Origin: a virus
Taxonomy: Duplodnaviria > Heunggongvirae > Uroviricota > Caudoviricetes
IMG/VR virus record: IMGVR_UViG_2870490042_000003
Length of the DNA stretch: 42,699 bases
Strand: one strand, 5' to 3'
Below are positions 27,978 to 41,281 of this stretch, piece after piece. Both the position numbers and the translations under genes were made by a program. Within the stretch, counting starts at the first letter, position 1. Every line of letters starts with the position of its first letter. The notes below the pieces were generated by a model, which saw only the letters and a program-made list of their open reading frames with translations, did no database searches and was not told the DNA's origin.

Positions 27978-28012
27978 GGAGTTTACTCACATCTGACAAA
28001 ATCAATATAAAC

Positions 28013-28216
28013 AGCCCCTCCGGAGAGGGGCTGGAGAGTGGCGCTATGTGCCATTGCATGGTGCCGGGTGCCTCCCGGTGAATTCAGTACCAGCACCTGA
28101 ATCCGCGATTATCCCATATACCTACTCGCTGATTACCCCTCCGCACAGGGGGATTCACCATGCGAAATTTTTTAACAAACTTCCCGCCGGCCAGACAATA
28201 ATCGCCAGCCTGAATT
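28013..28216. repeat. Copy 1 of a diverged ~205-bp direct repeat beginning with GC-rich hairpin AGCCCCTCCGGAGAGGGGCT
   Basis: Shared blocks with copy 2: AGCCCCTCCGGAGAGGGGCTG, CATGGTGCC..GCCTCCCGGT.AATTCAG, GGGGGATTCACCATGCGA, TTTTTAACAAA, GCCAGACAAT.ATC. Confidence 0.7.
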
Positions 28217-28475
28217 ATGAGCAACGTGGCATTTTACGGGAAAACTGTTTTCTGCAGTAAAAAGGCCCGCCGGAGCGAGCCTGGAAGGATAGCGGTCATG
28301 TGATGCCGGTTTCCCGGTAACTCAGCATCGGTATCTGAGTCAACGTTTTCTCTACTGGGTCATTTCCGATACGTTCCGCCTTCCGGCAGACTTTCATCAC
28401 GTCAGAAAATATAGCACCCTGAGTAACAGGACAGTACTCAGAATTCAGGAAACTGTGACACATCCTGCACAGAAA

Positions 28476-28685
28476 AGCCCCTCCGGAGAGGGGCTGAAGT
28501 ATAGCCTAATTTCTGTCTGTCGCATGGTGCCAGGGGCCTCCCGGTAAATTCAGCCTGTCTACTGAATTTGCATGTTCTCTGGATCATACACTTTGCCAGA
28601 TGCCCCGCCGCTGAGGGGGATTCACCATGCGATGTAATTTTTAACAAATTCTCCGGCAGCCAGACAATCATCAAGCTGTGGAATT
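28476..28685. repeat. Copy 2 of the diverged ~205-bp direct repeat
   Basis: Same conserved blocks as copy 1; the hairpin read on the - strand is followed by TTTTCTGTG. Confidence 0.7.
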
Positions 28686-29010: not shown

Positions 29011-29086
29011 TGGTGGCCCTTGCTGGATTTGAACCAGCGACCTGGCGATTATGAGTCGCTCGCTCTCACCACTGAGCTAAAGGGCC
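29011..29086 (-). tRNA. tRNA with CAU anticodon (tRNA-Ile2 ileX/ileZ-like, or Met), encoded CCA
   Basis: 76 nt folded by hand into a canonical cloverleaf: acceptor GGCCCTT/AAGGGCC, D-stem GCTC/GAGC, anticodon loop CT-CAT-AA, T-stem GCTGG/CCAGC, T-loop TTCAAAT, discriminator A, CCA. Confidence 0.85.
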
Positions 29087-29229: not shown

Positions 29230-30051
29230 TTACCTAGTTACCTTTTTTAACTGCCGCTCAGCCCATGCTTCTTCAATATCAAACCGGGTCACCAGCGCAT
29301 CATAGAATTTCTTAACTGTTTTTTCCCATGACGCGCGTGTTATCTGGTTTGTCACCTCGCATATAGCATTAAATGTCTCCGTTGATGGTAGTCTTTCATA
29401 GCCACGACCACCACAACGCTGGCAGTCTCTGATAACAGGCATACCACGTTTTACCGACTCTTCACGATGAATGGCGACACCACGCCCACGGCAATCCTTA
29501 CAGGCGGTGGAAACCTCACCCTTTCCGCCACACTCCGGACAGGCAACTTTTACCACCTCCCTGACTTTTTTCCATTCTTCCCAGTAAGACGAATACACAC
29601 CTTTCGTACACTTTGCCCATACCGGCGGCTTACCATCCGGATACTGGACCTTGTTTGTAAAAACTACGCTTTCAATAAATTTTTCCCCATAGCAACAAGG
29701 GCACTGCTTTTTACTCGCTGCGCTGCGGGCATAATCCTCAAAAGCGTACGAAGCCATAATGCGCATCACTAACGGTTTTATTTCTGCCGGAAGTTTTCTC
29801 AACGCCGCAACACGATCGCACCGACTGAGTGCATAATCTGCCAGTAATTCTGTTGCCCGCGCCCTGTCATTCATACTGATGCCCATTTTCCCCAGGAACG
29901 CAGAAAACCCCATCTCAGCCCGATTCTGTGTCATGCCCTGCGCGGCCATCACATCAGTGATACTCAGCGCATCTTTTGACGTTGAGGCCGATGCATCGGT
30001 CAGGCCAGGGGATTTTGGGGAGTAGTATTTCGGTAAATCTTCCAGTTTCAT
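29230..30051 (-). CDS. Antitermination protein Q (QuuQ-like, zinc-binding Cys clusters)
   Basis: 273 aa; MKLEDLPKYYSPKSP… N-terminus and CxxC clusters (CPCCYG, CPECGG, CKDCRG, CQRCGG); ATGA overlap with rusA; followed by pR'/tR'/tRNA. Confidence 0.75.
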   Translation of the reverse strand: MKLEDLPKYYSPKSPGLTDASASTSKDALSITDVMAAQGMTQNRAEMGFSAFLGKMGISMNDRARATELLADYALSRCDRVAALRKLPAEIKPLVMRIMASYAFEDYARSAASKKQCPCCYGEKFIESVVFTNKVQYPDGKPPVWAKCTKGVYSSYWEEWKKVREVVKVACPECGGKGEVSTACKDCRGRGVAIHREESVKRGMPVIRDCQRCGGRGYERLPSTETFNAICEVTNQITRASWEKTVKKFYDALVTRFDIEEAWAERQLKKVTR

Positions 30052-31934: not shown

Positions 31935-32090
31935 TTACTCCTCAGGTTCGTAAGCTGTGAAGACAGCGACCTCCGTCTGGCCGGTTCGGATTCGTACCTC
32001 GCAGAGGTCTTTCCTCGTTACCAGTGCCGTCACAATGACGGTTAAACAGATGACGATCAGGGCGATTAACATCGCCTTTTGCTGCTTCAT
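31935..32090 (-). CDS. hok: Hok/Gef-family type I toxin (HokD/RelF-like)
   Basis: 51 aa MKQQKAMLIALIVICLTVIVTALVTRKDLCEVRIRTGQTEVAVFTAYEPEE; an in-frame upstream ATG at 32147 would give a 70-aa form. Confidence 0.85.
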   Translation of the reverse strand: MKQQKAMLIALIVICLTVIVTALVTRKDLCEVRIRTGQTEVAVFTAYEPEE

Positions 32091-32349
32091 AGCCTGCTTC
32101 TCCTTGCCTTTCGGCACGTAAGAGGCTAACCTAGATTTGCCGTTCATAGATTGAGCCTCAGATTAATGTTAAGCGTCTTGCAGGACGCGTAATGTTAACT
32201 GGGGCTTTTCTCTATCTGCCTTTTGGTGTTCATGCCTGAGACAGATAGCCTCAAGCACCCGCAGTCATTCTACTTAACTAAGATTTCCCCGCAAACCGTT
32301 TTTGTCCGGCACAGTAAATATCCAACTAAACCAATGGCGTTCGCTGTAT

Positions 32350-36140: not shown

Positions 36141-36222
36141 AAAACTGAACGTCAAAAGTTTAATAATCAAAACCAAAGAAAGTCAAGAAACAAAACCATC
36201 TGTGTTTTAAAATCAAAACATG
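36141..36222. promoter_or_regulatory. Immunity control region between the Cro-like and CI-like genes: operator palindrome TGTTTT-N6-AAAACA (36203-36220) and candidate divergent promoters
   Basis: 18-bp palindrome abuts the cI ATG; TAAAAT hexamer 6 nt upstream of the cI ATG with no SD; AAAAC/GTTTT half-site repeats; - strand TTGACT…ATTAAA upstream of the cro-like gene. Confidence 0.5.
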
Positions 36223-36858
36223 AGCAAGCAAACTATATCTGAACGCATAACCCAACGTATGCATGCGCTAAACCTGAAAGGCAAAGACCTTGTCAATGGC
36301 ACTGGCGCATCAAAAGGCTCCGTAAGTCAATGGATGAACGGTGGAGGAGCGCCGTCCTCGCGTTACATAAGTTCACTGGCAAAAATATTGAAAGTAAACG
36401 AAAATTGGCTTCTTAATGGAGGAGAGTTAAATACAGGTGATTCGCTTGATCTATCTTTACCGCCGATAAAAACGGTTCCGCTACTATCACTTCAGCAGGC
36501 AGCAAGCTGGAGTGATTATATGAAAAATTCCTCAATAACCTCTTGTGTGCAGCTTGTCGGAGAAATCCCGGTCAATACCTTTGCAGTTGTTCTAGAGAGT
36601 GACAGTATGTCAACATCTGGTGGGGGAGTTTCCATCCCAAATGGTTCAACAGTTTTTGTTGATCCCGATCGAACCGTACAACCAGGAAATATTGTCCTTG
36701 CCTTACCCAAAGGGACCACAACACCTGTCATTCGTAAACTGGAGATAGAAGGGCCGGATATTCTTTTAGTCCCCACGAATCCTCGCTACCCTTCAATTAT
36801 GCTGGATGATCTATCTTGCATATTGGGCGTATGCTTTAAAATTCAACAAGATATTTAA
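36220..36858 (+). CDS. CI-like repressor (N-terminal HTH, C-terminal S24 LexA-type autopeptidase)
   Basis: 212 aa; HTH region …GKDLVNGTGASKGSVSQWMNG…; Ser (SDSM) and Lys (VIRKL) dyad candidates in the C-terminal half. Confidence 0.8.
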   Translation: MSKQTISERITQRMHALNLKGKDLVNGTGASKGSVSQWMNGGGAPSSRYISSLAKILKVNENWLLNGGELNTGDSLDLSLPPIKTVPLLSLQQAASWSDYMKNSSITSCVQLVGEIPVNTFAVVLESDSMSTSGGGVSIPNGSTVFVDPDRTVQPGNIVLALPKGTTTPVIRKLEIEGPDILLVPTNPRYPSIMLDDLSCILGVCFKIQQDI

Positions 36859-36924
36859 CCAACCTCATCTATTTGATTAACTGTATGCCATCGTGGTGAT
36901 GGCTTAACAGCTGCCTGCTTAAAA

Positions 36925-36971
36925 TGTTTTGATAAAAAAACATTGACCTGAAAAGTTCGTTTTTCTAAACT
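36925..36971 (+). promoter_or_regulatory. Candidate early-left promoter (pL-like: TTGACC-N17-TAAACT) with an overlapping operator palindrome
   Basis: -35 at 36943-36948, -10 at 36966-36971; TGTTTT-GATAAA-AAAACA at 36925-36942 has the same architecture as the site at 36203-36220. Confidence 0.5.
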
Positions 36972-37289
36972 TCATTCATTCCCTCACCCCATCCTACAGA
37001 ATGCAGGGCAATACTTCGAGTTACCAGGCAGTGGTCAGGGGTTAAGTAGCCAGCCCGAGGCGTAAGAACATGACGGCAGGGTTCAACTTTAATAACTATG
37101 CAGCAGGTTTTTGTTCCGCTACCCCGGCGTTAAGGGGAAACAGAGGATTTCTCAGTGGGCGAAGTCAAACATCAGAATGGAAGGCGTCCAGGGATCAGCA
37201 AAGAAACAGCGATGGCGCTTTATATTGATATCAGCGCCATTGCCGGACAGGTAAGAATTATCAGAGCGGTAACTAAGCGGTATGCGCCT

Positions 37290-37490
37290 TTACTTCAGAA
37301 AGTCTCTGGTGAGTGCACCGAAGATATTGTCAACGATTTCGTCATCAAACTGCGAGGACTCATCTTCAGTTACAAGGTGACCACAATTTTTGCAGATGGC
37401 TCCCGCGAAACTGTCAGAGCCCTGCGGTTTAAAGGATGTGTCAAAGACTTCGCCACCACATTCTGGGCAAGAAAACTTGATTGTATTCAT
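37290..37490 (-). CDS. Small zinc-ribbon protein (CPECGG…CKNCGH), 66 aa
   Basis: ATG 37490 with AGAGGA SD; two CxxC pairs; overlaps a + strand ORF (37155-37511) that starts with GTG and has no clear SD. Confidence 0.45.
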   Translation of the reverse strand: MNTIKFSCPECGGEVFDTSFKPQGSDSFAGAICKNCGHLVTEDESSQFDDEIVDNIFGALTRDFLK

Positions 37491-37582
37491 AACCAATTTC
37501 CTCTCGAGTAACAGACCCCTCAGAGGATACCACCTCGCCTGACGTGGTTAAAAGCAGGCAACGCTAACCACAAGGAGCCGAC

Positions 37583-37801
37583 ATGCAGAAACGAGAACCC
37601 GTCATCATCGCGCCAGACTATACCGATGATGAACTTTATGAGTGGATGCGCCAGAAAATTAATGCAGCGCAGGATTTGAAATGGGCCAATGAAGCCAGGG
37701 CTAAGCAGGCTGAAAATCTGTCCGCTCTGGAGCAGGATATCACCAGGCTGGAAAAAGCAGCGGCATTAAGCATTGCCAGAATGATTACATACCCGCGTTA
37801 A
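37583..37801 (+). CDS. Hypothetical early-left protein (72 aa)
   Basis: ATG 37583 with GGAG 6 nt upstream; predicted helical; no family recognised. Confidence 0.55.
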   Translation: MQKREPVIIAPDYTDDELYEWMRQKINAAQDLKWANEARAKQAENLSALEQDITRLEKAAALSIARMITYPR

Positions 37802-38208
37802 TAGATAACCAACGAAGCTAAGGTTGGTAATTAAGGAGTTCTCCACGGGTGAGGTGGAGTGCGTGCGCCGGACACGGGTGAGCATCCGGCACTGACAGTT
37901 TACTGAAAGGATATTTCCCTGAAAAGTCAGACCATAACGCGAAAGCGCACGGCGAGGTAGCTGGTTCATAGATAGCCTGTCGTTAAATTTTCGTCGACCG
38001 TGCGCTTCCGGTTGTGGCAATCCGCGAAATGGCGCGGCGGTAAGTATGGCGGGGTTATTCCTTCCCCCGTTGAGGACACCGGGTTGTCAGGTTGACCATA
38101 CGCTTAAGTGACAACCCCACTGCAACGCCCTCTGTTATCAATTTTCTGGTGACGTTTGGCGGTATCAGTTTTACTCCGTGACTGCTCTGCCGCCCTTTTT
38201 AAAGTGAA

Positions 38209-38348
38209 TTTTGTGATGCGGTGAATGCGGCTAAGCGCACGCGGAACAGTTAAAACCAAAAACAGTGTTATGGGTGGATTCTCTGTATCCGGCGTTAATT
38301 GTTAACTGGTTAACGTCACCTGGAGGCACCAGGCACCGCATCACAAAA
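38209..38348. repeat. Pair of perfect 15-bp inverted repeats (TTTTGTGATGCGGTG / CACCGCATCACAAAA) separated by 110 bp
   Basis: Left arm 38209-38223, right arm 38334-38348; the right arm lies about 20 nt upstream of the kilR-like ATG. Confidence 0.6.
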
Positions 38349-38369
38349 CTCATTGTTGAGGGCGCGATA

Positions 38370-38558
38370 ATGAAAACGTTATTACCAAACGTTAATACGT
38401 CTGAAGGTTGTTTTGAAATTGGTGTCACTATCAGTAATCCTGTATTTACTGAAGATGCCATTAACAAAAGAAAACACGAACGGGAGTTATTAAATAAAGT
38501 ATGCATTGTTTCAATGCTGGCCCGTTTACGTCTGATGCCAAAAGGATGTGCACAATGA
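38370..38558 (+). CDS. KilR-like small protein (Rac-type cell-division inhibitor candidate)
   Basis: 62 aa from ATG 38370 (GAGGG SD); …NVNTSEGCFEIGVTISNPVFTEDAINKRKHERELLNKVCIVSMLARLRLMPKGCAQ; the KilR call is from memory and position. Confidence 0.45.
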   Translation: MKTLLPNVNTSEGCFEIGVTISNPVFTEDAINKRKHERELLNKVCIVSMLARLRLMPKGCAQ

Positions 38559-38746
38559 ATCCAGTATTTGCACTTATTCTGACGGTTTTTCTTGTTTCCG
38601 GAGAGCCAGTTGATATTGCAGTCAGTGTTCACAGAACAATGCAGGAATGTATGGCAGCAGCAACCGAACAGAAAATTCCAGGCAACTGTTATCCGGTCGA
38701 TAAAGTTATTCACCAGGATAATAACGAAATCCCGGCAGGATTTTAA
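38555..38746 (+). CDS. Small protein with hydrophobic N-terminus (63 aa), translationally coupled to the kilR-like gene
   Basis: ATGA start/stop overlap at 38555-38558; MNPVFALILTVFLVSGEPVDIAVSVHRTMQECMAAATEQ…. Confidence 0.5.
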   Translation: MNPVFALILTVFLVSGEPVDIAVSVHRTMQECMAAATEQKIPGNCYPVDKVIHQDNNEIPAGF

Positions 38747-38839
38747 AACAGCACCGTAATAAATATCCAGTTTCATTCTTATATGTCAGCAATGGCAGAG
38801 ATTTGTTCACCCTTAAATCTGTGATGAGGTTTACCAATA

Positions 38840-41281
38840 ATGAGCACTGATAAAGAAGAATTTGCACTATATTGCGAAGCAAAAAATGACAAAGTAAGAA
38901 AACGCCTAGGAATTAAAGGTGGTTTTTACTGGACTACAGCAAAAAAATTATCTGTTGCAATCTCCCGCTGCATTACCGCAATGGATGACAACGATTATGA
39001 TGAAGACGACTTTAAAAAACCCGTCCGCGTCAATTTGCCCGTTGTTGACGACCTTCCGCCAGAAGGCGTGTTTGATACTGAATTCTGCAACCGCTATGAA
39101 AAAGGCGGGAAAGATGGCATCACAATGACATTTATCGGCCCTTCCCCCTCTGTTCAGGACAAACCAGCCAGCACTGACAATACCAACATCAACGGCGAAG
39201 CCATGACTGAGATTGAGGAGAGCATGCTTCTGCCTGTCTCCGGTCAGGAACTGCCCATTCGTTGGCTTGCTCAACACGGCAGCGAAAAACCAGTAACGCA
39301 CGTTTCACGCGACGAACTCCAGGCATTACACATTGCACGGGCTGAAGAACTACCGGCTGTTACTGCCCTGGCTATTTCGCATAAAACCAGTCTGCTCGAC
39401 TCGCTGGAGATTCGCGACCTCCACAAACTGGTTCGTGACACTGACAAAGTTTTCCCTAATCCTGGTAATTCAGACCTGGGACTAATAACTGCTTTTTTCG
39501 AAGCATACCTAGACGCTGACTACACTGATCGGGGTCTGCTGACAAAAGAGTGGATGAAAGGAAATCGTGTTTCACGCATCACCCGCACGGCTTCCGGTGC
39601 TAATGCTGGCGGTGGGAACAAAACCGATCGCAATCCGAATTTAGTACACACCCTCGACACACTGGATGTGGAGATTGCAGCAGCCACACTTCCGATGGAT
39701 TTTAATATTTATGAAATTCCGGGCAGCGTTTATCGTCGCGCAAAAGAAGTAGTCCTGAACAAAGAAAGTCCGTTCAAAGAATGGTCCGCAGCACTTCGTG
39801 CAACCCCGGGTATTCTGGACTATTCCCGCGCCGCTATTTTTGCACTTATCCGAAGCGCACACCCTGAATTTTATCACTACCCGGGACGCCTTCAGGGGTA
39901 TATCAACGCCTATTTGACGGAAACTGATCACGAGAACCCCAGCAAGGAAACTCTCACAGCTGCCCGGCATACGCCGGAAAAAGATATCCTGGAAGAAATT
40001 AACCGCGAGGTGGTTACTGAGCGTGAAACAGAAGAAGAAAAACCACAACCATCTGACGCAATGGCAGGTGAACAGGCAACAACTGAAACAATGGAACCGG
40101 ATACAACTGAACATGGCCAGAACGCGCAGTCGCTGGATGCTCAGTCGCAGGTGAGTTCCGCTAACCAAGTAAAAGTCACCGCTGACGAAGTAAACAAAAT
40201 TATGCAGGCAGCCAATATCAGCCAGCCTGACGCCGATAAGTTACTTGCTGTATCGCGTGGTGAATTTGTTGAGGGGATTAGCGACCCTAATGATCCGAAA
40301 TGGGTCAAAGGGATCCAGACTCGCGATTCTGTGAACCAGAACCAGCATGAATCGGAACGGAACGACCAAAAAGCGGAACAAAACAGCCCAAATGCGTTAC
40401 AAAACGAGCCAGAAACGAAACAATCCGAACCAGTGGCGCAACAGGAAGTGGAAAAAGTCTGCACCGCCTGCGGTCAGACCGGCGGCGGCAACTGCCCTGA
40501 TTGTGGCGCGGTGATGGGCGACGCAACATACCAGGAAACATTCGATGAAGAGTATCAGGTTGAAGTTCAGGAAGATGATCCGGAGGAAATGGAAGGCGCT
40601 GAACATCCACACAAGGAGAACACTGGCGGCAATCAGCATCACGATAGCGATAATGAAACTGGCGAGACGGCAGATCACTCAATTAAGGTGAACGGTCATC
40701 AAGAAATCACATCCACCAGCAGGACGTGTGACCATCTAATGATCGACCTTGAAACCATGGGAAAAAATCCTGATGCCCCGATCATCTCAATAGGTGCAAT
40801 ATTTTTCGATCCGCAAACCGGAGATATGGGACCGGAATTTAGTAAGACTATCGATCTGGAAACTGCTGGCGGAGTCATTGATCGGGACACCATTAAATGG
40901 TGGCTTAAGCAATCACGCGAAGCGCAATCTGCCATTATGACCGATGAAATCCCGTTAGATGATGCACTGTTACAATTGCGGGAATTTATCGACGAAAACT
41001 CCGGTGAATTTTTTGTTCAGGTCTGGGGAAATGGAGCCAACTTCGACAACACGATTTTGCGCCGTTCATACGAACGGCAGGGGATCCCCTGCCCGTGGCG
41101 TTACTACAACGATCGCGATGTACGCACAATCGTTGAGCTGGGGAAAGCCATAGACTTCGATGCCAGAACGGCTATTCCATTCGAAGGTGAGCGCCATAAT
41201 GCACTTGATGACGCCCGTTACCAGGCAAAATACGTTTCAGTTATCTGGCAAAAACTGATCCCGAGTCAGGCTGATTTTTAA
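38840..41281 (+). CDS. RecE-like N-terminal/central region fused to a C-terminal DEDDh (DnaQ-like) 3'-5' exonuclease domain
   Basis: 813 aa; N-terminal two-thirds (…[30 protein letters not shown]…[19 protein letters not shown]…) resembles Rac RecE as I recall it; the C-terminal ~190 aa carry DEDDh-type motifs ([28 protein letters not shown]). Confidence 0.65.

Follow-up and report, generated by a model that had tools for sequence, protein, structure and literature searches.

The window analysed here is a 42,699-nucleotide stretch of DNA from a virus of the Caudoviricetes (IMG/VR record IMGVR_UViG_2870490042_000003), read 5' to 3' on one strand. Its positions 37802-38369 constitute the intercistronic spacer of ydfC, dicF and dicB, that is, a portion of the dicBF operon of a Qin-type lambdoid prophage. 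To the 5' side lies ydfC (37583-37801, + strand, 72 aa), as identified from the list of open reading frames and from the RefSeq annotation of E. coli loci that are 100% identical. To the 3' side lies dicB (38370-38558, +, 62 aa), with its start codon at 38370 and a GAGGG ribosome-binding site at 38358-38362 (+), and then ydfD (38555-38746, +), annotated by RefSeq as a DUF1482 lysis protein. A preliminary description of this DNA had taken the gene following the spacer to be kilR-like. The product of that gene instead matches the Pfam family DicB (PF05358, E=5e-40) over residues 1-62 of 62, and carries the RefSeq name 'cell division inhibition protein DicB'. What does survive of the kilR label is that the same RNA element, as considered below, precedes kilR in Rac-type phages.

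Many E. coli chromosomes match the 1.3-kb region at 100% identity and have its flanks annotated as ydfC, dicB and ydfD, and a match to it is present in 4755 of 5426 complete E. coli genomes. From ydfC to dicB the spacer is 98-99% identical to that of prophage Qin of E. coli K-12, with dicF found in the same place (alignment A1, mean column identity 99%) and with the order ydfC-dicF-dicB-ydfD common to both. Together these genes form a 1.6-kb transcript unit of which, going by transcript sizes, ydfD is the last gene (PMC10448788). The two prophages differ, however, at the head of the operon. Upstream of ydfC in the window, both the list of open reading frames and RefSeq annotation lack the dicA repressor, ydfA and ydfB of K-12, with a LexA/cI-type repressor gene replacing DicA. 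This LexA/cI-family gene (36220-36858) is followed by a PL-like promoter (TTGACC-17-TAAACT, 36943-36971, +), and where K-12 has ydfA and ydfB there is instead an ECs_2282-family zinc-binding gene (37290-37496, -). As the latter is on the opposite strand, the early-left transcript would be antisense to it. The operon itself is indeed of the early-left type, as had been proposed for the spacer's context, i.e., it is positioned 3' of the cI-like gene and PL-like promoter, and 5' of exonuclease, xis and int. A promoter and terminator scan of 36800-38900 left the spacer with no convincing + strand promoter of its own, which agrees with published work (PMC10448788); the same scan missed the DicF terminator, the stem of which is interrupted.

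Several further elements of this prophage may be mentioned. Just upstream of ydfC is a hairpin-forming motif, CCACCTCGCCTGACGTGGTTAAAAGCAGGC (37527-37560, +), which recurs 5' of STnc100-like elements in many IMG/VR loci. Its Klebsiella phage form, ACCACCGAGCCTGAAGTGGTGAAAAGACAGGC, is likewise located 5' of STnc100-like elements, and the hairpin perhaps serves as an early-leader signal, nutL/boxB-like or of another kind. Elsewhere in the window, a sok antitoxin RNA (RF01794, 112 bits, 32085-32260, -) indicates a hok/sok-type toxin-antitoxin locus in the prophage. An ALIL pseudoknot (RF01497, 120 bits, 1363-1479, +) is the frameshift element of IS3-family insertion sequences, and therefore there is an IS element at the left end of the window.

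Within the spacer is the 53-nt small RNA DicF (38143-38195, +, with the U-tract of its terminator extending to 38200). Rfam model RF00039 finds it at 38144-38195 (76.7 bits versus a gathering score of 48, E=1e-16), and its sequence is identical to that of K-12 dicF (b1574; alignment A1). A small RNA had been offered beforehand as one alternative for this segment, and the segment does contain one, but DicF itself had gone unnoticed.

DicF is preceded by two other structured stretches, both on the + strand. The first, recovered by inverted repeat search and folding, is a hairpin at 37940-38010 (arms 37940-37952 and 37998-38010), the arms of which are almost invariant over 42 homologues while the enclosed sequence is variable. 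The second, at 38011-38134, is the 5' module of the 190-nt DicF precursor, in which a closing helix (38011-38018 with 38119-38126) encloses three hairpins; it was delimited using blastn against phages, annotations and variants collected with nhmmer. By blastn this module is present as well in the leader of the P1 and P7 ban operon and in the early regions of phages cdtI and F1055, and its nhmmer helix variants are either wobble-to-Watson-Crick or compensatory. The copy in the P1 ban leader adjoins, and partly overlaps, a stretch labelled 'dicF-like region' in P1 record AF234172, and the cdtI and F1055 copies are 3' of cI. The closing helix, GUUGUGG...CCACAAC, resembles that of STnc100-like copies which precede DicF-like sRNAs, and because of this resemblance the modules on the two sides of DicF may be related to each other. 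The spacer overall is a chain of structured RNA modules, an RNA-processing region rather than a plain leader.

The inverted repeat between DicF and dicB

Five nucleotides past the DicF terminator U-tract there begins an inverted repeat, with arms at 38205-38223 and 38334-38352 (+). These arms are 19 nt long, 95% complementary and 110 nt apart, and their perfect 15-bp core is found at 38209-38223 and 38334-38348. When 37802-38369 was shuffled 200 times, perfect inverted repeats usually reached no more than 8 bp and never exceeded 13 bp, versus the 15 bp observed. RNA folding places both arms within one helix, whether it is 38144-38400 that is folded (z = -6.2) or 38197-38375 (z = -5.1), with 0 of 200 shuffles folding as well in either case. 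The minimum free energy (MFE) helix, extending to 38203 on the left and 38354 on the right, is approximately 21 bp, that is, 15 perfect pairs, one mismatch and five more pairs, and as about two turns (~20 bp) of mostly uninterrupted double-stranded RNA it has what an RNase III site calls for. From the start codon of dicB at 38370 the end of the perfect arm is 21 nt distant and that of the extended arm 17 nt. The preliminary description thus was accurate as to the repeat, its coordinates and its spacing of 110 bp, as to the downstream arm being some 20 nt from a start codon, and in proposing that the arms could pair in the RNA. In K-12 Qin, by comparison, two of the 15 pairs are G.U wobbles, whereas the arms in the window are fully complementary over 15 bp, and the one A.C mismatch of the window helix is an A-U pair in Qin.

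Homologues were collected by blastn of phage genomes, by a motif scan of IMG/VR (120 loci) and by a scan of GTDB genomes, and the element was recovered in Escherichia, Shigella, Pseudescherichia, Klebsiella, Raoultella, Enterobacter and Citrobacter. Copies of the E. coli-type dicF-dicB spacer are seen also on contigs within Veillonella parvula and Collinsella metagenome-assembled genomes (L145, L148), most likely as binning contamination. The 73 distinct homologue sequences make up alignment A3, on which the MFE structure of the window was counted. RNAalifold applied to A3 (n=73) recovers the closing helix along with two hairpins. For the whole structure 85% of cells are paired, versus 34-44% for slid controls, and the covariation score is 0.20 versus 0.04-0.09; neither value, covariation or percentage paired, was attained by any of 500 shuffles.

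The closing helix, counted over 20 pairs, is paired in 90% of cells and displays two-sided, compensatory changes at 10 of those pairs. Copies from Klebsiella, Raoultella, Pseudescherichia and Citrobacter have stems of 18-26 bp with quite different sequences. For the single sequence, the reverse strand gives a fold nearly as good as that of the forward strand (z = -5.7), and single-sequence folding cannot discriminate strands. Among the homologues, however, the helix contains 114 G.U versus 20 A.C combinations, and as G.U outnumbers A.C to this extent it is the + strand RNA that is the selected molecule. The earlier suggestion of long-range RNA pairing by the repeat is borne out by both the covariation and this bias.

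Probable RNase III processing of the spacer

Neither the locus nor the RNase III role of the stem is new, both having been known since 1990. Faubladier, Cam and Bouche reportedly described in that year an RNase III site in the dicF-dicB intergenic region of K-12 Qin, a site that was revisited later (PMC10448788).

In K-12 the 5' end of DicF is made by RNase E (PMC10448788, PMC9438474), with the 53-nt form being RNase E-dependent and ending at a Rho-independent terminator (PMC10448788). Two longer forms involve RNase III, i.e., a 190-nt precursor which is RNase III-dependent and possesses an RNase III-generated 5' end (PMC10448788), and a 72-nt isoform that arises when RNase III processes the full-length mRNA (PMC5069750; PMC9438474). 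In an RNA-seq comparison of wild type with Δrnc, MG1655 position 1649470 is reported as RNase III-dependent, 'dicF-dicB intergenic, known: yes' (PMC5371410 Table S1), and a review has the dicA-dicF-dicB intergenic region among listed RNase III substrates (PMC2777011). The MG1655 position corresponds approximately to 38231 of the window, just inside of the helix and not in an arm, this being a low-resolution site with 26 reads.

If 190 nt are counted upstream from the 3' end of DicF, the precursor of that length should begin at approximately 38006-38010, in the 3' arm of the upstream hairpin. Adding 19 nt to the 53-nt end puts the 3' end of the 72-nt isoform at approximately 38214-38219, halfway along the left arm. 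These cut positions are arithmetic from isoform lengths as supplied by secondary sources, and are accurate to about 5 nt. RNase III cleavage generates a 2-nt 3' overhang, and given this geometry a partner cut would be expected in the right arm at approximately 38340-38345, which would leave the dicB mRNA with a leader of roughly 25-30 nt. As the 3' end of the 72-nt isoform falls in the left arm and an RNase III-dependent site is listed for the dicF-dicB spacer, the segment very probably is the RNA-processing spacer of the dicBF operon, with the 15-bp inverted repeat serving as the RNase III stem between DicF and dicB.

Processing may then be envisaged as beginning with transcription from the PL-like promoter, which would pass through ydfC. 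RNase III would cleave the upstream hairpin, giving the 190-nt DicF precursor, and RNase E would cleave at about 38143, giving the DicF 5' end. The majority of transcripts would end at the DicF terminator (38195-38200). In RNA which reads through into dicB-ydfD, the repeat would be present, right after that terminator, as a double-stranded stem of some 21 bp that closes a four-hairpin module (38205-38352). An RNase III cut of the left arm would then yield the 72-nt DicF isoform, and a cut of the right arm would free the dicB-ydfD mRNA, with its short leader, from the sRNA part. The exact cut positions, the right-arm cut and any effect on dicB expression are what we infer in this scheme. The locus, the helix, its + strand covariation and the placement of isoform lengths within helices were computed here, whereas the dependence on RNase III and on RNase E, like the lengths of the isoforms, is taken from publications on the K-12 locus, which is 98% identical.

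Two observations count against this scheme. First, the motifs interior to the stem are strongly conserved, and as a simple hairpin suffices for a plain RNase III site, processing alone does not account for that conserved interior. Second, the closing stems of the copies in P7 and D6, and of copies located 5' of DicF-like sRNAs, are only 9-10 bp, which is too short for canonical RNase III cleavage.

Comparison can be made with RNase III sites of other phages. The lambda N leader and sib sites and the R1-R5 sites of phage T7 likewise are stems of some 20 bp between the cistrons of an early operon, and are cut by host RNase III, thereby separating functional RNAs and remodelling leaders. Those stems are simple or bulged hairpins, however, whereas the dicF-dicB stem closes a 110-nt module of four hairpins, and one of its products is a trans-acting sRNA isoform. 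It also resembles CJnc190 (PMC8687705) and ManS (PMC11745405), sRNAs whose ends are produced by RNase III cutting of a long intramolecular stem within a longer transcript. With CJnc190 and ManS it is the mature, functional sRNA that depends on the cut, while the main, 53-nt form of DicF is a product of termination and RNase E, with RNase III involved only in the 72-nt and 190-nt forms.

The STnc100-like interior and competing explanations

The interior of the module (38224-38333, +) was characterized by a sub-threshold Rfam match, MFE structure, covariation and alignment with STnc100. A GAAU linker is followed in the MFE structure by a hairpin at 38227-38242 that is invariant, then by a variable hairpin (38243-38290), a third hairpin (38291-38317) and, lastly, a CCUGG-AGGCA-CCAGG hairpin (38319-38333), all on the + strand. 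The interior also covaries, pair 150/160, for example, being UA in 51 and GC in 22. The Rfam STnc100 model (RF02076) matches 38207-38347 at 38.8 bits (E=2e-6), which is below its gathering score of 47, with the outer helix of the model corresponding to the inverted repeat; relatives of the module in other phages score 33-44 bits.

In common with canonical STnc100 are a closing stem (GNNGGUG/CACCNNC), a GGUGAAU motif, a GC-rich first hairpin and a ACCNGGAGGCACCNGGCACC hairpin, with the stem, the GGUGAAU motif and a terminal ACCNGGAGGCACCNGG hairpin being shared both by cmscan and in a MAFFT alignment (A4). STnc100/PasD and the dicF-dicB module also are both prophage-borne in Enterobacteriaceae. 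The module differs from STnc100 in lacking a terminator of its own, the dicB Shine-Dalgarno (SD) sequence and start codon instead following directly, in being situated between an sRNA and an open reading frame of the early-left operon rather than in the late region, and in having its closing stem lengthened to about 21 bp. It is thus a relative of STnc100 rather than a formal member of that family. We found no paper describing the dicF-dicB spacer as STnc100-like. STnc100 has been linked to the Hfq-associated PasD prophage sRNAs (bioRxiv 10.64898/2026.05.13.724894).

Two canonical STnc100 genes are present in the window as well, at 28003-28191 (-, 132.5 bits) and 28467-28660 (-, 138 bits), each ending in its own intrinsic terminator, i.e., a GC hairpin and T-run. 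Upstream of this pair, which belongs to the late region, are a tRNA (29014-29086, -) and a 273-aa open reading frame with a CxxC-rich zinc-finger region (29230-30051, -). Including the divergent copy of the dicF-dicB spacer, the prophage carries a total of three STnc100-type modules.

Given such an interior, two RNase III cuts may do more than separate DicF from dicB. They might release approximately 38216-38343 as a stable regulatory RNA, about 125-130 nt long and STnc100/PasD-like, an explanation to which we give some weight while thinking it the less probable. The stem, GGUGAAU motif, first GC hairpin and ACCNGGAGGCACCNGGCACC hairpin that the interior shares with the window's two high-scoring canonical copies (132-138 bits), along with the E=2e-6 match, argue in its favour, as does the association of STnc100/PasD relatives with Hfq (bioRxiv 10.64898/2026.05.13.724894) and the existence of other sRNAs excised by RNase III (PMC8687705, PMC11745405). 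The presumptive cut, moreover, would leave an 8-bp stem, which is the length of the canonical STnc100 closing stem, and the interior motifs are invariant in the 73 variants despite differing downstream genes. A search of the literature nevertheless yielded no report of an RNA from the 38216-38343 interval. Such an RNA would be without a Rho-independent terminator, hence without the Hfq-binding 3' end of the canonical copies, the STnc100 score is below the Rfam threshold, and the short-stem copies could not be released by RNase III cuts. Were excision to occur, the dicBF operon would possess a second sRNA besides DicF, i.e., a third regulator besides DicF and DicB.

A role in translational control, as had been suggested from the proximity of the downstream arm to the start codon, is unlikelier still. 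Here the helix in read-through RNA, with its outward extension, would hide the dicB ribosome-binding site, and RNase III cutting or unfolding would expose that site, an arrangement by which the toxic division inhibitor would be kept off. Activation of translation via RNase III cleavage of a leader is an established mechanism, as with the lambda N leader. For the window, the helix is predicted to continue past a 3-nt internal loop into 5-6 bp between the SD (38358-38363) and bases 38192-38197, on the 3' side of the DicF terminator. Accessibility of SD and AUG was calculated by partition function for five constructs of the window, with the SD being 99-100% paired in all of the long ones (MFE and partition function), and a predicted local hairpin, 38350-38358 with 38366-38374, can hold the AUG. 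The covarying helix, however, ends 5 nt short of the SD, the SD-terminator pairing is seen in only 68% of homologue cells versus 90% for the main helix, and most dicB-type copies have GAGGAC, with weaker pairing. In nine homologues with dicB, kilR, terB or other genes downstream, compared as long versus RNase III-cut forms, accessibility of the ribosome-binding site with versus without the upstream arm changed in no consistent direction. In the window, too, the SD is still mostly paired locally following the modelled cut (0.10 unpaired). Of long-range occlusion there thus stands the SD pairing predicted for the window but not a consistent effect among homologues. Occlusion, as modelled, would be a local and secondary effect rather than a conserved function.

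That the spacer might be a decayed protein-coding gene is highly improbable. Two short open reading frames overlapping it do match PHROG families, at 38000-38095 (+, phrog_8854, E=6e-19) and, as an in-frame extension, at 38265-38369 (+, phrog_24763, E=3e-21). Both families are unnamed and of unknown function, however, and both reading frames coincide with covarying RNA helices. The four spacer reading frames that were scanned against Pfam lack a match, no functional PHROG was found among the six scanned, and neither RefSeq nor the curated K-12 annotation places a CDS in the spacer, K-12 having there ncRNA dicF only. The two PHROGs probably collect spurious calls on conserved, structured, non-coding RNA. 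The earlier view that 37802-38369 holds no convincing open reading frame accordingly is upheld, and the decayed gene with frame-disrupted homology, which had been named as what would overturn it, is rejected following these scans.

Least probable of all is a DNA-level element, whether a cruciform or, as had also been raised, an inverted pair of recombinase or regulator sites. In its favour, the symmetry of a perfect 15-bp inverted repeat exists at the DNA level too, and the reverse strand of the single sequence folds nearly equally well. The substitution pattern across homologues rejects it, with arm sequences wholly different between lineages while pairing is retained and with a + strand G.U bias not expected from DNA symmetry, and the site is located within a transcribed operon for which RNA ends have been mapped in the K-12 orthologue.

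Recurrence before other phage genes

The RNase III stem and the module it closes are not peculiar to dicB. In enterobacterial phages the element precedes several unrelated small genes, at a distance of 36-49 nt from their start codons, with 57 copies before dicB and approximately 14 before kilR (e.g., Rac-SA53, 75/02 Stx and PhiR5_2). It is found as well before genes for a 145-aa and a 94-aa protein, before small Klebsiella open reading frames and before the TerB gene of the P7 ban operon. With Escherichia-type lambdoid copies in such leaders (dicB, kilR, 145-aa, 94-aa), a DicF-like sRNA plus terminator abuts the left arm. In some Klebsiella, Raoultella and Pseudescherichia copies no DicF-like sequence was found upstream. 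The order is reversed at 22 loci, i.e., the element comes first and then a DicF-like sRNA. In these reversed-order loci (L007, L009, L013 and about 19 others from IMG/VR; L132 and L151) the closing stem is 9 bp and the DicF-like sRNA has its own terminator. In phage P7 (L005) there is, in addition, an unannotated tRNA-Sec-like match (1304-1388, +, 46.6 bits versus a gathering score of 47), about 110 nt upstream of the STnc100-like element of the ban operon.

Such recurrence may be read, tentatively and with the balance presently tilted against it, as that of a portable RNA cassette bearing an excision helix, one usually coupled to a DicF-like sRNA and recruited before dicB, kilR, terB and others. 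What is new here is modest, namely, that the stem closes an STnc100-like module, that this module, usually with a DicF-like sRNA, is a portable cassette preceding several toxic phage genes and that RNase III might, though this is the less probable, excise it as a separate RNA. Were such excision to hold, the recurrence would imply a module of general use in processing or expressing toxic early genes of phages.

For the window the practical outcome is a corrected annotation, i.e., ydfC, DicF, RNase III stem and dicB. The two prophage products concerned, DicB and DicF, stop the host cell from dividing, reprogram its sugar metabolism and make it resistant to phage, and what sets their dosage is still being studied. 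The findings suggest that some of the 'STnc100' family are elements embedded in operons and not sRNA genes standing alone, and suggest as well that enterobacterial phages have in common a design in which DicF-type cassettes are processed by RNase III.
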